Part shown: piece by piece, positions 4,796 to 31,225 of the stretch | How the letters are laid out: each line of letters starts with the position of its first letter | Numbering within the stretch: the stretch's first letter is position 1 | From: Dehalococcoidia bacterium | Lineage (GTDB): Bacteria > Chloroflexota > Dehalococcoidia > CAUJGQ01 | DNA: 64,000 nt | Assembly (NCBI GenBank): GCA_042408665.1 | Contig: JBHOQW010000252.1 | Location: 16,718-80,717 of the forward strand | Direction of reading: 5' to 3' | The notes under the pieces: generated by a model | Databases searched by the model: none | Told to the model about the DNA's origin: nothing | What the model saw: only the letters and a program-made list of their open reading frames with translations | Translations under genes and position numbers: made by a program

Positions 4796-4870
4796 TGGAG
4801 CGGGAGATGGGATTCGAACCCACGACCTGCTGCTTGGGAAGCAGCCACTCTGCCACTGAGTTACTCCCGC
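4796..4870 (-). tRNA. tRNA-Gly (anticodon CCC), CCA encoded
   Basis: Reverse complement reads GCGGGAGTAACTCAGTGGCAGAGTGGCTGCTTCCCAAGCAGCAGGTCGTGGGTTCGAATCCCATCTCCCGCTCCA. It has a 7-bp acceptor stem, the anticodon loop TTCCCAA, the GGTTCGAATCC T-arm and discriminator U. Confidence 0.95.
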
Positions 4871-12399: not shown

Positions 12400-13050
12400 T
12401 CAGTCGGAGATGCGCTGCGGGTTGCGCAGGTAGTCCAGGCTGCGACGGTACCATTCCTCGCTGATCTTGCCGCTCGACATCAGGTAATTGAGCAGCGTCT
12501 CCAGGTCCAGCATCGGGATGAGGCGGATGTTGTGCTGCTTGAGCCGCTCACGCCCCCCCTGCCGCCGATCCAGCAGCACGATGGCATCCCGCACCACGAG
12601 ACCCCGGTCACGGAGCTGCTGCGCCGTCTCGATGATGCTGGTACCGCCGGTGATCAGGTCGTCGATGATGAGCACGGTTTGACCGGGCACGTAGTTGCCC
12701 TCGATCACGCTGGACCGGCCCTCTTTGGTGGGGTGCAGGTAGATCATCGGCACTTTGGAGACCAGCGAGAACGCCGTGGCCAGATGCAGACCGCCGAACG
12801 GGACGCCGGCCACCAGACTGAAGGGCGAGATGCCGGGATGCAGCATGCTGAGCAGCGTTTCGGTCTCCTCTTTCATGACGCGGGCGATGCGCCGCAGGGT
12901 TAACGGCCGGCTCACCAGCAGGCGCAGGTTGACGTACACGGGCGAATGCAACGTGCGGCCAATGTTGAAATCCCCGAATTTGATCGCACCGAGGTCCCAC
13001 AGTTCTCGGGCCAGCCACAGATTCCCCGCGTTGCCGCTGCCGCGTGCCAT
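12400..13050 (-). CDS. orotate phosphoribosyltransferase-like protein (divergent catalytic loop)
   Basis: PRPP motif VLIIDDLITGGTS, IKFGDF...SPVYVNLR and DRRQGG match the OPRT layout. The flexible-loop RKExK segment reads HPTKEGRSS instead. ATG at 13050 with GGTGAAGGGG upstream; the track start is TTG at 13077. Confidence 0.7.
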   Translation of the reverse strand: MARGSGNAGNLWLARELWDLGAIKFGDFNIGRTLHSPVYVNLRLLVSRPLTLRRIARVMKEETETLLSMLHPGISPFSLVAGVPFGGLHLATAFSLVSKVPMIYLHPTKEGRSSVIEGNYVPGQTVLIIDDLITGGTSIIETAQQLRDRGLVVRDAIVLLDRRQGGRERLKQHNIRLIPMLDLETLLNYLMSSGKISEEWYRRSLDYLRNPQRISD

Positions 13051-13080
13051 CCCCTTCACCGTCCTTACCGTGTCCAAGGA

Positions 13081-13112
13081 AACAAAAAAGGCCCCGTCCG
13101 CTGGACGCAGCC
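13081..13112 (-). terminator. intrinsic terminator/attenuator hairpin plus U6 tract about 30 nt upstream of the PRTase start
   Basis: Minus strand reads GGCTGCGTCCAGCGGACGGGGCC followed by TTTTTTGTT. Confidence 0.7.
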
Positions 13113-13363
13113 TTGACCAGGAGCACTATACATTATTCCGCATCGGCACGGGCCCCACACCCGGGGAGCACCCACCGTGATGGCTCGCTTTGCTGCAACC
13201 TACCCTCTACGCTGAGCCGTGGAGCGAGGCCCGCCGCCGGCGCCCTGCCCAAAGGCAGGGCTTACCTGTCAACCTGCCAGACCCTCCACAGGGCGTGCAA
13301 GCGCATGGCTCCCTCCGCTCAGCATGCCGGGATCGCCATGAGGCCGCAGTCCGGCCTACCCGC

Positions 13364-13392
13364 ACGCTAGCATCGGTTCTAAAAGCTGTCAA
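13364..13392 (-). promoter_or_regulatory. putative sigma-70-type promoter (TTGACA-17 nt-TAGCGT) overlapping the rfbD stop
   Basis: Minus strand has TTGACA at 13392-13387, a 17-nt spacer, then TAGCGT at 13369-13364. Confidence 0.5.
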
Positions 13393-14288
13393 GTACCCTG
13401 TTCCGATCGCAGAACCCGTTCCCAACCGGCACGCAGGTGGCCTTTTGCCCGCAGGTAGGCTGCCAGCGCCTCCTCCAGCGGTCGCAGCGGGGGGATGCCG
13501 ATGGCGCGCAGCCGGTCGTTGGCCAGCACGGAGTACGCCGGTCGCGGGGCGGGGGCCCCGTATTCGGCGGACGAGACGGGCGTGAGCTGGGCGGGTGTGT
13601 CCGTGAGCCGGAAGATCAGGGCGGCGAAATCGTGCCAGGAGATGGTGCCCGCGTTCGTGATGTGGCAGACACCGTACGCCTCGGTGCGCGCCAGGCGCAC
13701 CAGGGCGGCGGCTAGGTCGGCCGTGGCCGTCGGGCCAAGCACCTGGTCGTTGACGACGCGCAGCGGCCGACCCTCGCGGGCGAGACGCAGCATGGTCTCC
13801 ACGAAGTTGCCGCCCTTGCCCGACGCGCCGGCCACGCCGTACAGCCCCGAGCTGCGCACGATGTAGTGGCGCGGGTTGGCCAGTGCCACCAGCCGCTCGC
13901 CGGCGGCCTTGCTGGCGCCGTAGGCGTTGAGCGGGCCTGGCCGGTCCTCCTCCCGATAGGGGCGACGGGCCGTGCCCGAGAAGACGTAGTCGGTGCTCAC
14001 CCACAGCACGGCCGCGTCCACGGCGGCCGCCCACCGCGCCACCAGCCACGCCCCGTAGGCGTTGACGTGAAAGGCCACTGTCGGGTCGCGTTCCAGGTCG
14101 TCCACGCGGTGCGCCGCCGCCAGGTTGACCACCAGGTGCGGGCGGGTCGCCTCCACCGCGGCGCGCACGGCCGCGGGGTCGGTGACGTCGCAGTCGCGGT
14201 GGCTGAGGGCACGGACCTCGGCGTCCGGCCAGGAACGCACCAGGTCGTGACCGAGCTGGGAGCGGGCGCCGAGCACCAGGACGCGCAC
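13389..14288 (-). CDS. rfbD: dTDP-4-dehydrorhamnose reductase-like (RmlD family)
   Basis: GARSQLG Rossmann motif, STDYVF, YGASK active-site motif and PRPAYSVL near the C-terminus. GTG start 1 nt after the upstream stop. Confidence 0.8.
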   Translation of the reverse strand: MRVLVLGARSQLGHDLVRSWPDAEVRALSHRDCDVTDPAAVRAAVEATRPHLVVNLAAAHRVDDLERDPTVAFHVNAYGAWLVARWAAAVDAAVLWVSTDYVFSGTARRPYREEDRPGPLNAYGASKAAGERLVALANPRHYIVRSSGLYGVAGASGKGGNFVETMLRLAREGRPLRVVNDQVLGPTATADLAAALVRLARTEAYGVCHITNAGTISWHDFAALIFRLTDTPAQLTPVSSAEYGAPAPRPAYSVLANDRLRAIGIPPLRPLEEALAAYLRAKGHLRAGWERVLRSEQGT

Positions 14289-14289
14289 G

Positions 14290-15252
14290 CTAGCCGGCCT
14301 CCGTCCGGCCCGGGCGTGGCCGCTCGTCCATGAGCATCCGCAGGAGGGCCATCCGCACGTACAGACCGTTCTCCGCCTGACGGAACACGGCCACGCGCGG
14401 GTCGGTTAGGTACTCCTCGGGCAGCTCCGGGCCGGCCGGCAGCGGATGGAGGATCACCGCGTCGTCTGGGAGCGCCGCCAACACGTCTGCGGTGAGGGTG
14501 AAGCAGCGCTCATCCTCGCTGGGGCCGTACAAGTGCTGGAGGGCAAAGTGGCTGAACTGTCCGGCCACAAAGTATAAGACGTCCGTATCCGCCGCCGCCT
14601 TGCGCAGGTCGAGGCCGACGTCAAACTGGAGCGCGTCGCTGCCAATCGCCTGCTGGATGTTCTCCGTCACCTTGAGCACGGCCGGCGAGATGAAGTGGAA
14701 GCGCACGCCCCGGTACCGCAGGGCCAGCAGCTTGACGAACGAGCGCATGGCCGGCCAGCGCCAGAAGCTGGTGTCCCCCACCAGTGTGACCCGCAGCCCG
14801 TCCGGTGGGCCGCGCCGCTCGACGATCGTCACCAGGTCGAGCAGCGCCTGCGTTGGGTGTTCGCCCTCCGGCTCGCCGCCGTTGAACACCGGCATGGCCG
14901 CCACCCTGGCCGCGCGGGCGGCGCCGCCGGCCTGCTCCGCCCGGATCACCAGACCGTCGAAGTGCCAGGCGTTAAGGATGCGCACCGTGTCCTCCACGCT
15001 CTGCTCGCGGGCCTGCGGCGACAGGGTGCTCGGGCGCAGCTCACGCACGCGCCCGCCCAGGATCTCCATCGCCTCGGCGAAGGAAGAGGCCGTGAGGAGG
15101 CTTTCCTGATACAGCAGAATAGCGAGCTTGCGCCCACGCAGCGGCTCGCCCGTCCCGACGAGCGCCGCGCGTTCCATGCGCTGCGTCTCGGGGATGAGCT
15201 CCGTCTCGATCCAGCGGCGGTCGAACTGCGCGACCTCAAGCACGTGGCGCAT
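14290..15252 (-). CDS. aspartate/ornithine carbamoyltransferase-fold protein lacking the STRTR motif
   Basis: HPTQALLD and HPLP motifs and the overall ATCase layout are present. The carbamoyl-phosphate motif position reads ESLLTAS instead of PSTRTR. ATG at 15252 with AGGAGGG upstream. Confidence 0.7.
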   Translation of the reverse strand: MRHVLEVAQFDRRWIETELIPETQRMERAALVGTGEPLRGRKLAILLYQESLLTASSFAEAMEILGGRVRELRPSTLSPQAREQSVEDTVRILNAWHFDGLVIRAEQAGGAARAARVAAMPVFNGGEPEGEHPTQALLDLVTIVERRGPPDGLRVTLVGDTSFWRWPAMRSFVKLLALRYRGVRFHFISPAVLKVTENIQQAIGSDALQFDVGLDLRKAAADTDVLYFVAGQFSHFALQHLYGPSEDERCFTLTADVLAALPDDAVILHPLPAGPELPEEYLTDPRVAVFRQAENGLYVRMALLRMLMDERPRPGRTEAG

Positions 15253-15277
15253 GCGGCGGCTCCGCCCTCCTGTGTTC

Positions 15278-16465
15278 TCAGTTCCGGCTGACGACCATGG
15301 CGATGCCCTGGCCACCGCCGATGCACAGCGTGGCCAGGCCGAGGTGGGCCGCGCGCCGCCGCATCTCGTGCAGGAGCGTCACCAGGATGCGCGCGCCGCT
15401 GGCGCCGATCGGGTGCCCGAGGGCGATGGCGCCGCCGTTCACGTTCAGCTTCTCCGGGTCGAGGCCCAGCTCCCGCTGTACGGCGATGCTCTGGGCGGCA
15501 AACGCCTCGTTGGCTTCCACAAGGTCGAGCTGGCGTATGTCCAGGTCGGCGCGGGCCAGCGCCTTACGCGTGGCGGGTACGGGACCGATCCCCATGATCT
15601 TGGGGTCCACCCCCGCCGCGGCCCAGCTCCGGATGGTGGCCAGCGGCTCGAGACCCAGCGCTGCGGCCTTGCGCCGGCTCATCACCACCACGGCGGCGGC
15701 GCCGTCGTTGATGCCGGAGGCGTTTCCGGCGGTGACAGCACCGTCTTTCTTGAAGGCCGGCCGCAGGGTGGCCAACCGCTCCAGGGTCGTGTCCGGGCGG
15801 GGGTGCTCGTCGGTGCTGACCACCGTCGTGCCCTTGCGTCCCGGTACTTCGACCGGCACGATCTCGTCGTTGAAGCGGCCGCTGCGGATGGCCTCGGCGG
15901 CGCGGCGCTGGCTCTCGGCGGCGAAGGCGTCCTGCTCGGCGCGTGAGATCTCCCACCGTTCGCTAATGTTCTCCGCCGTCACCCCCATGTGGCAGTCGGC
16001 GAAGGCGCACCACAGGCCGTCCAGGATCATGCTGTCGAGGACCTGGTCATGCCCCATGCGGTAGCCGAAGCGGGCCTTGGGCAGCAGGTAGGGGGCGGCG
16101 CTCATGTTCTCTTGGCCGCCCGCCACGACGACCTCGGCGTCGCCGGTGAGCACCGCCTGGGCGGCCAGCACCACGGCCTTCAGCCCGGAGCCGCACACCT
16201 TGTTGATGGTGGTGGCCGGCACGGTCTCCGGCAGTCCGGCCGCCATCGCCGCCTGCCGCGCCGGGTTCATGCCCAGGCCGGCCTGCAGCACGTTGCCCAT
16301 GATCACCTCATCCACCTGCTCGGGTGCGACCCCGGCCCGGCGCAGTGCCTCGCGGATCACCACCGCGCCCAGCCGCGGCGCGGGCATCTCCGCCAGGGCG
16401 CCGCCGAAGGCGCCGATGGGCGTGCGCACCGCGCTGACGATCACCGCTTCATCTTGACCGGTCAT
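15278..16465 (-). CDS. acetyl-CoA C-acetyltransferase (thiolase II)
   Basis: [26 protein letters not shown] (active-site Cys), [12 protein letters not shown] and the C-terminal CIGGGQGIA. Confidence 0.9.
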
Positions 16466-30929: not shown

Positions 30930-31019
30930 CCGTGGGCCGCTCCCCGTTTCACCCCCCGACACGTTCCTTGACCCTCCTCGGTGGAACTGATAGAGTGGCG
31001 CCACAACTGCATAGTATCG

Positions 31020-31225
<206 letters not shown>

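Follow-up and report, generated by a model that had tools for sequence, protein, structure and literature searches.

A Dehalococcoidia locus with paralogues of two pyrimidine-biosynthesis enzymes, probably in two adjacent transcription units

A 64,000-nucleotide stretch of DNA from a Dehalococcoidia bacterium (assembly GCA_042408665.1, contig JBHOQW010000252.1, positions 16,718 to 80,717; hereafter the window) contains four genes encoding a thiolase, a homologue of aspartate transcarbamylase (ATCase), an RmlD-type reductase and a homologue of orotate phosphoribosyltransferase (OPRT). Our analysis supports the view that the ATCase-like and the OPRT-like genes are not the housekeeping pyrB and pyrE genes. 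The ATCase-like protein belongs to a conserved lineage that lacks the arginine of the SxRT motif, and the OPRT-like gene is preceded by a leader with features of an attenuator. The four genes probably form two transcription units that happen to lie side by side, namely a three-gene operon and an independent OPRT-like gene, and do not encode one pathway.

The source genome is a metagenome-assembled genome of 4.2 Mb with a G+C content of about 70%, a completeness of 92% and a contamination of 8%, and the window lies within an 83-kb contig. The names given in public databases to its nearest homologues point to the class Dehalococcoidia of the phylum Chloroflexota. On the minus strand, the order is thiolase, ATCase-like gene, rmlD, a leader of 338 nt and OPRT-like gene. 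Protein families were assigned with Pfam and NCBIfam models using curated cut-offs. The locus comprises the following features:

15278..16465, minus strand: thiolase (acetyl-CoA C-acetyl/acyltransferase), Pfam Thiolase_N/C; first gene of the co-directional unit
14290..15252, minus strand: ATCase-fold paralogue of clade A (see below), Pfam OTCace_N and OTCace; the ATG at 15252 is preceded by an AGGAGGG ribosome-binding site
13389..14288, minus strand: RmlD-type dTDP-4-dehydrorhamnose reductase (dTDP, deoxythymidine diphosphate), Pfam RmlD_sub_bind; GTG start
13364..13392, minus strand: predicted promoter of the OPRT-like gene, with TTGACA at 13392-13387, a spacing of 17 nt and TAGCGT at 13369-13364
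13262..13306, minus strand: leader mini-ORF (short open reading frame) MRLHALWRVWQVDR-stop, with a GGAGGG ribosome-binding site
13261-13242, minus strand: hairpin GCCCUGCC/GGCAGGGC, directly 3' of the mini-ORF
13084..13112, minus strand: intrinsic-terminator-like hairpin followed by U6, found by scan and fold
12400..13050, minus strand: OPRT-fold paralogue, Pfam Pribosyltran; probably a separate transcription unit

The coordinates bear out the four co-directional minus-strand genes and the 25-nt and 1-nt gaps that had been described in the initial annotation. Specifically, 25 nt separate the TGA of the thiolase gene from the ATG of the ATCase-like gene, a single nucleotide separates the TAG of the latter from the GTG of rmlD, and the spacer from the rmlD stop to the start of the OPRT-like gene has 338 nt. 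The thiolase gene, the ATCase-like gene and rmlD each have their own ribosome-binding site.

Canonical versions of both pyrimidine enzymes were found on other contigs of the same genome. The canonical PyrB on contig C292 (312 bits) has the STRTR motif, the KGES loop, RLQTER and HPGP all intact, and its gene adjoins a phosphoribosyltransferase-like gene of the pyrR type. The canonical PyrE on contig C298 (126 bits) carries LRSGK and VRKDAKEYG. An ornithine transcarbamylase is also present, on contig C269. Because canonical pyrB and pyrE genes exist elsewhere, the ATCase-like and OPRT-like genes are extra paralogues, and the earlier prediction that they are unlikely to be the housekeeping genes holds: they are not the only copies.

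The ATCase-like protein exceeded the cut-offs of the Pfam models OTCace_N (89.6 bits) and OTCace (58.2 bits) and stayed below every curated equivalog cut-off, including the one for ATCase (TIGR00670, asp_carb_tr; 180 bits versus 237). Its residues were read by alignment to the Arabidopsis ATCase and 120 homologues. At the position of STRTR, the protein has S51-L-L-T-A, such that the arginine of SxRT is replaced by leucine. At the position of TRIQRER, it has VAGQFSH, with R229 changed to alanine and Q231 kept. HPTQALLD, HPLP and R105 are retained, an arginine near position 167 is kept in clade A, and a loop specific to clade A, GDTSFWRWPAMRS, contains two tryptophans. The alignments thereby agree with the initial annotation about the retained HPTQALLD and HPLP motifs, the replacement of STRTR by SLLTA and, with the exception of the retained Q231, the disappearance of the downstream R-x-Q-x-ER region. 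An AlphaFold model of the protein had a mean confidence score (pLDDT) of 89.8, and its best match in the PDB was the Arabidopsis ATCase (TM-score 0.85).

The closest known system is the ATCase catalytic chain (PyrB) of the plant/archaeal type, represented by Arabidopsis PYRB (PDB 6YPO/6YVB). Both proteins have the same two-domain fold, with about 36-40% identity, similar length and no extra domains, and both contain HPTQ, HPLP, R105, S52 and T55. The ATCase-like protein differs by replacement of T53, R54 and R56 (SLLTA) as well as of R229, E233 and R234, by a new WRWP insertion in the loop around R167, and by its coexistence with a canonical PyrB, outside any pyr operon.

The motifs SxRT, HPxQ and HxLP are the hallmark of every known transcarbamylase, and SxRT is the main phosphate recognition site (PMC4581275). 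The title of PDB entry 1acm describes Arg54 as critical for catalysis. From the residues that are missing we infer that the ATCase-like protein no longer uses carbamoyl phosphate or transfers carbamoyl groups. Most likely, it would bind a ligand without transferring carbamoyl groups or serve as a re-purposed enzyme. Alternatively, it could have remained a transferase, either a transcarbamylase or an acyl or carbamoyl transferase related to it, with a site for the phosphorylated donor rebuilt from S51, T54, R104 and new residues, but this is improbable. S52, T55, R105, H134, Q137 and the cis-proline turn of HPLP are all kept, clade A also retains R167 and Q231, and the sequence is strongly conserved. 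However, the SxRT arginine is leucine in both clades described below and the adjacent threonine is leucine or phenylalanine, which would make the phosphate site hydrophobic. In addition, R229 is missing, as are E50 and R234, which pair in domain closure, and both the title of 1acm and the retention of SxRT in all known transcarbamylases (PMC4581275) argue against a rebuilt site.

Another pyrimidine-enzyme paralogue that has likewise been conserved after losing catalytic residues is the inactive dihydroorotase PyrC', a structural subunit of the Pseudomonas-type ATCase; inactive dihydroorotase in ATCase complexes is mentioned in the review cited above (PMC4581275). PyrC' has a different fold, is encoded together with pyrB and serves pyrimidine synthesis, whereas the ATCase-like protein is an ATCase homologue itself and is unlinked to pyr genes.

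Homologues of the ATCase-like protein fall into two clades. Clade A, to which the protein of the window belongs, comprises about 19 clusters at 90% identity, all of which carry ES[LF][LM]TA, GDTSFWRWPAMRS and YFVAGQF-x-HF; SLLTA, VAGQFSH and GDTSFWRWPAMRS are conserved within the clade at 74-95% identity. Clade B is about 40% identical to clade A and comprises about 26 clusters. It is represented in G003, G004 and G007, which belong to two other genera of the same family of organisms as the source, and its protein is named "hypothetical protein" by NCBI. Clade B has the motif SFLTR and has lost R167, R229 and Q231; HPTQ and HPLP are invariant in both clades. Clade B loci are L021 (8734-9786), L022 (3514-4545) and L070/L071 (7001-7987).

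Clades A and B grouped into a single clade (SH-aLRT support 99) when a quick maximum-likelihood tree was built. The sister of this clade is an SxRT-intact group with unusual second-substrate loops, ERLEDR and TRAHSER. A phylogenetic placement, which had been proposed for both paralogues, was thereby obtained for the ATCase-like A/B clade. The SxRT arginine and the aspartate-binding R229 appear to have been lost before the split of A and B. Because the loss predates this split and the sequences remain constrained, the ATCase-like gene would encode a functional protein; it seems to have been under purifying selection since the loss of the arginine and not to be a decaying gene. One member of the SxRT-intact sister group (L069, 6001-6939) lies in a cluster with genes for an ATP-grasp protein, an N-oxygenase-like flavoprotein, a PhyH dioxygenase, a methyltransferase and glycosyltransferases, and probably acts as a so far uncharacterised transcarbamylase in a biosynthetic pathway.

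When an A/B profile was run against 1.84 billion representative proteins, only two full-length clusters at 50% identity were found, with 539 and 492 bits. Below these, the score fell to 265 bits with SxRT-intact proteins, except for a few single degenerate sequences, e.g. P0351. The A/B lineage is restricted to Dehalococcoidia and, within this class, to one family. That SxRT-less ATCase homologues make up a larger family was considered and rejected, as the profile search yielded clades A and B and a few unrelated singles (P0351, P0354). These two isolated ATCase homologues without the SxRT arginine have SLVTK and STGTQ, respectively, and P0351, which also has YFVSAQ and HPQP, may represent a third degenerate lineage. 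A literature search for ATCase pseudoenzymes or OPRT paralogues in Dehalococcoidia gave nothing relevant.

The gene neighbourhood of clade A was read in seven contexts (this window, G002, L025, L026/L027, L028, L075 and L076). In all seven, the ATCase-like gene is located directly upstream of rmlD, with gaps of 1-38 nt and, once, of 212 nt. Both outer sides vary. A thiolase gene precedes the ATCase-like gene in three contexts, and the upstream gene otherwise encodes an HhH-GPD glycosylase or a SnoaL-like protein. No thiolase gene occupies this position in L025, L028 and L075, nor in G001, a genome of the same genus in which rmlD, the leader, the OPRT-like gene and CapA are present and the thiolase and ATCase-like genes are absent. 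Directly 3' of rmlD, four contexts have the OPRT-like gene. In two others, this slot is taken by an inosine-uridine nucleoside hydrolase gene (L028, 8294-9244) and by a family III CoA-transferase gene (L075, 2896-4179), respectively. The four-gene arrangement, for which a conservation in relatives had been suggested as a check, does not extend beyond the clade A relatives and is variable among them, with the thiolase gene in 3/7 contexts. Clade B shows no link to rmlD or to the OPRT-like gene.

The fixed place upstream of rmlD hints at co-expression with RmlD or a dependence on it. It could even be that the ATCase-like protein and RmlD form a two-gene module with the other genes as bystanders, in which the ATCase-like protein binds a nucleotide or nucleotide-sugar, regulates or assists RmlD, or acts on its dTDP-sugar product. 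We consider this rather unlikely. In its favour, the pair stays adjacent in every clade A context while its flanks change, the stop codon of the ATCase-like gene and the rmlD start are 1 nt apart in the window, the clade-specific loop of the ATCase-like protein has two tryptophans, and plant ATCase, the closest solved relative, binds the nucleotide UMP (uridine monophosphate) in its active site (entry 6ypo). On the other hand, RmlD proteins of the same type are encoded without an adjacent ATCase-like gene in G001 and G003, clade B genes never adjoin rmlD, and clade A is so narrow that the synteny may simply be inherited.

The RmlD protein itself scored above the equivalog cut-off (TIGR01214, 299 bits versus 224), and the catalytic threonine (STDYVF) and the Y-x3-K motif (YGASK) are present in the translation. 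In these respects it resembles known RmlD proteins, from which it differs by the glycine-rich motif GARSQLG and by being encoded apart from rmlA and rmlB. The description as a stand-alone gene is correct, as no rml gene was found elsewhere on the 83-kb contig. The rmlA and rmlB genes of the genome are on contig C310 (401-2497), without an rmlD gene after them. An rmlC gene above the cut-off was not found in the 92%-complete assembly; G001 has one. The idea that the rmlD gene of the window is a spare copy was discarded, as a search for a second rmlD in the genome returned none; likewise, exactly one rmlD above the cut-off was found per genome in six related genomes. The simplest reading is that RmlD is an ordinary dTDP-4-dehydrorhamnose reductase encoded apart from its partners.

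RmlD shares 70-72% identity with its stand-alone counterparts in G001 and G003, but only 36% with the RmlD of G004 and G007. In these two genomes, which represent a sister genus, rmlD is part of an rmlA(long)-rmlB-rmlD-cupin operon (G004 locus L067, 4915-8762). Two RmlD types thus occur in one family of organisms, the stand-alone type of this genome and G001-G003 and the operon type of G004 and G007. A polysaccharide locus on contig C195 (16931-20558) encodes a flippase-like membrane protein and a glycosyltransferase in addition to an NAD-dependent epimerase/dehydratase and a small cupin that weakly matches RmlC (27.5 bits). The dehydratase-cupin pair recurs in G002 and G003.

The thiolase is an ordinary enzyme, with 515 bits for TIGR01930 compared with a cut-off of 240 and catalytic motifs, CIGGGQG among them, in its translation, and it is encoded at one of five thiolase loci in the genome. 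In the clade B contexts that were read, neither rmlD nor an OPRT-like gene is nearby. Instead, an acyl-CoA dehydrogenase gene precedes the clade B gene in every context, at a distance of about 85 nt, and once a MaoC-like dehydratase gene follows downstream. Of the roughly 4200 genes in the genome, about 5 encode thiolases, 22 acyl-CoA dehydrogenases and 37 family III CoA-transferases, and at such frequencies a neighbour of the acyl-CoA type would be expected in only a few per cent of cases. The repeated adjacency of clade A and clade B genes to acyl-CoA genes is suggestive of a link to acyl-CoA or organic-acid metabolism but, having been noticed post hoc, falls short of proof.

The OPRT-like protein stayed below all curated pyrE cut-offs (for instance, TIGR00336, 86 bits versus 106.8; PRK13809, 147 bits versus 208). 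Its ATG start at 13050 is backed by homologues of 216 amino acids, and a TTG at 13077 is the less likely start. The residues were aligned to the human OPRT and to the PyrE of the same genome. The phosphoribosyl pyrophosphate (PRPP) loop VLIIDDLITGGTS is intact, and the ribose-5-phosphate loop and the base-side residues are retained. At the position of RRKETKDYG the protein has LH-PTKE-G, with R99/K100 replaced by His-Pro; the lysine K26 of LKSG is replaced by glycine (GRT), and K73 is also glycine. The position of K103 is not conserved across the OPRT-like family, and the loop has the form YLHP-x3-G. The residues K26, K73, R99, K100 and K103 are those that we take to hold the pyrophosphate in the OPRTs of Salmonella and E. 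coli. The initial annotation was accurate with respect to the intact PRPP loop, the altered flexible loop and the leader ahead of the gene. Invariant in the family are FG-x-F-x-x-GRT-x-x-SP, AGVPFGGL, YLHP, DDL-x-x-G-x-S and DR-x-QGG.

The AlphaFold model of the OPRT-like protein (pLDDT 88.1) matched best the human OPRT domain, with TM-scores of 0.82/0.89. This domain of UMPS (PDB 2WNS; eukaryote/cyanobacterial type, NCBIfam PRK13809) shares with it the type I phosphoribosyltransferase fold at 38% structure-based identity, the PRPP loop, the SP-x-Y base-side strand, DR-x-QGG and the C-terminal helical extension. The OPRT-like protein differs from OPRT by glycine at K26 and K73, by His-Pro at R99/K100, by the unconserved K103 and by being a second copy beside a canonical PyrE. 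Judging from these positions, it would bind an orotidine monophosphate-like nucleotide or PRPP without being a standard OPRT, and may either have a regulatory function or catalyse an altered transfer reaction. Phosphoribosyltransferase folds have been re-used to sense nucleotides or PRPP in PyrR, which is derived from uracil phosphoribosyltransferase, and in the archaeal GfcR. The OPRT-like protein has weak matches to OPRT-like and GfcR models, but it has neither a helix-turn-helix domain nor a known surface for RNA binding, and a regulatory role is hypothetical.

The OPRT-like family was found in 58 of 151 genomes of the class, with one copy per genome. The genomes that have it nearly always also contain a canonical pyrE, and the few exceptions are incomplete assemblies. 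Most genomes with the OPRT-like gene lack an ATCase-like gene. Conserved gene partners of the family were sought and rejected, as the neighbours vary between contigs (MgtE/Nramp; an EF-G paralogue; MetH/ThiS). The tryptophan codons of the leader described below gave rise to the idea that the protein might be a non-orthologous anthranilate phosphoribosyltransferase. This candidate was also discarded, as trpD above the cut-off is present in 137/151 genomes, including this one. Members of this family, which is common in Dehalococcoidia, are routinely annotated as pyrE by some pipelines, and recognising that the pyrophosphate residues are lost and that a canonical pyrE nearly always accompanies the gene helps to avoid errors in metabolic reconstruction.

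The leader of the OPRT-like gene starts with a near-consensus promoter, the TTGACA box of which overlaps the rmlD stop codon. The pattern TTGACA-17-TAnnnT likewise opens homologous leaders in distant genomes. The terminator hairpin with its U6 run lies about 35 nt before the start codon of the OPRT-like gene, and an equivalent hairpin and U-run with compensatory changes is found in many homologous leaders. Leaders were compared at window 13051-13392, L036, L040, L042-L044, L046, L055 and L074. The mini-ORF is conserved as ..R-W-G-V-W-Q-V-D-R-stop in 12 leaders, which precede OPRT-like proteins that are 55-82% identical, and the hairpin behind it is conserved as well. The same layout recurs in other families of the class, with OPRT-like proteins of 55-65% identity and the peptide ..RIRWGVWQVDR-stop. 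In the genus of the window (G001, G002, L025), the second tryptophan of the leader peptide is replaced by leucine, and the stop codon is shifted in G001 and G002.

For the seven core codons of the mini-ORF, 9, 6 and 27 changes were counted at codon positions 1, 2 and 3, respectively. This pattern of substitutions, mainly at third positions, indicates that the mini-ORF is a translated sequence. RNAalifold supported the terminator stem and a long-range pairing of GGCCCC with GGGGCC, each with compensatory changes, and the covariation support for alternative pairings in the leader is partial. Together, these features point to a putative translation-coupled attenuator. A known riboswitch or PyrR site was rejected as a candidate: Rfam scans gave no match for the window leader at E values up to 5 or for 19 homologous loci at E values up to 1, and no PyrR-binding-site RNA was found in either scan. 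A regulon controlled through a second copy of the mini-ORF was also rejected, as the genome has a single copy.

The trp, pyrBI and pyrE leader-peptide attenuators combine a promoter and a short translated ORF with alternative hairpins and a terminator ahead of the controlled gene, a layout that the OPRT-like leader, which contains two tryptophan codons, would share. It differs from the enterobacterial attenuators in that the peptide sequence (RWGVWQVDR-stop) is conserved across distant genera and that about 150 nt lie between the end of the mini-ORF and the terminator. The conserved mini-ORF offers a concrete starting point for work on gene regulation in bacteria of this class, which are difficult to grow.

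These observations bear on the initial proposal that all four genes form a new nucleotide or sugar-nucleotide pathway or a regulatory set of pseudoenzymes. The genes are indeed co-directional, both pyrimidine-enzyme paralogues are close to one another and occur together in at least 4 of the 7 clade A contexts, and in one context a nucleoside hydrolase gene replaces the OPRT-like gene. However, the OPRT-like gene has a promoter, a leader and a terminator of its own, it occurs elsewhere with unrelated neighbours, and it is present in G001, where the ATCase-like gene is absent. The distributions also differ, with 58/151 genomes for the OPRT-like family and one family of organisms for the ATCase-like clades, and the thiolase gene is missing in 4/7 contexts. 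The proposal of a single pathway therefore has little probability, and the proximity of the four genes provides no evidence of a shared pathway; the main value of this result is corrective.

We favour the arrangement in two independent units. The first would consist of the thiolase gene, the ATCase-like gene and rmlD, which would be an operon in this genome. Its ATCase-like protein, with fold, R105, HPxQ and HxLP kept, would have a ligand-binding or re-purposed role, and the clade A contexts, with a thiolase gene upstream and, in one case, a CoA-transferase gene just downstream of rmlD, would fit the acyl-CoA link. The second unit would be the OPRT-like gene, transcribed from a separate promoter and controlled by a translated mini-ORF together with alternative hairpins and a terminator.

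Several points weigh against this interpretation. The contigs with the canonical pyrB and pyrE genes could in principle be foreign in a metagenome assembly with 8% contamination, but relatives show the same pattern. The operon boundaries are drawn from sequence signals, and the presumed loss of catalysis in both paralogues is deduced from residues. The tree is a quick tree, and clades A and B have long stems. As clade A spans a narrow range, the constant adjacency of the ATCase-like gene and rmlD could reflect inherited synteny and not function. Finally, the presence of two pyrimidine-enzyme paralogues within 2.5 kb is left as chance.

That both paralogues are decaying remnants, i.e. pseudogenes with open frames, seems very improbable. 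It is true that catalytic residues are lost in both and that both score below curated family cut-offs. But both frames are intact, both AlphaFold models are confident, and the altered motifs are invariant across clade A, clade B and the OPRT-like family. Moreover, the loss in the ATCase-like lineage predates the split of two clades with about 40% identity, and an elaborate conserved leader has been kept ahead of the OPRT-like gene.

Both paralogues are variants of known folds. If our view of the ATCase-like protein is true, the conserved SxRT-less lineage would be a natural re-use of the classic transcarbamylase fold, either as a pseudoenzyme or for new chemistry. A more far-reaching possibility, which we put forward tentatively and with some doubt, is that the A/B lineage is a new small-molecule sensor or enzyme for acyl-CoA or deoxysugar metabolism that has moved away from carbamoyl phosphate, and that the OPRT-like family and its RWGVWQVDR leader form an undescribed regulatory system in which the nascent peptide or the position of the ribosome controls a phosphoribosyltransferase of altered catalysis that occurs across Dehalococcoidia.

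Two RNA features were identified elsewhere in the window. A cobalamin riboswitch (Rfam RF00174, 78 bits) is located at 31009-31144 on the plus strand, and a tRNA gene (Rfam RF00005, 69.9 bits) is located at 4799-4870 on the minus strand.

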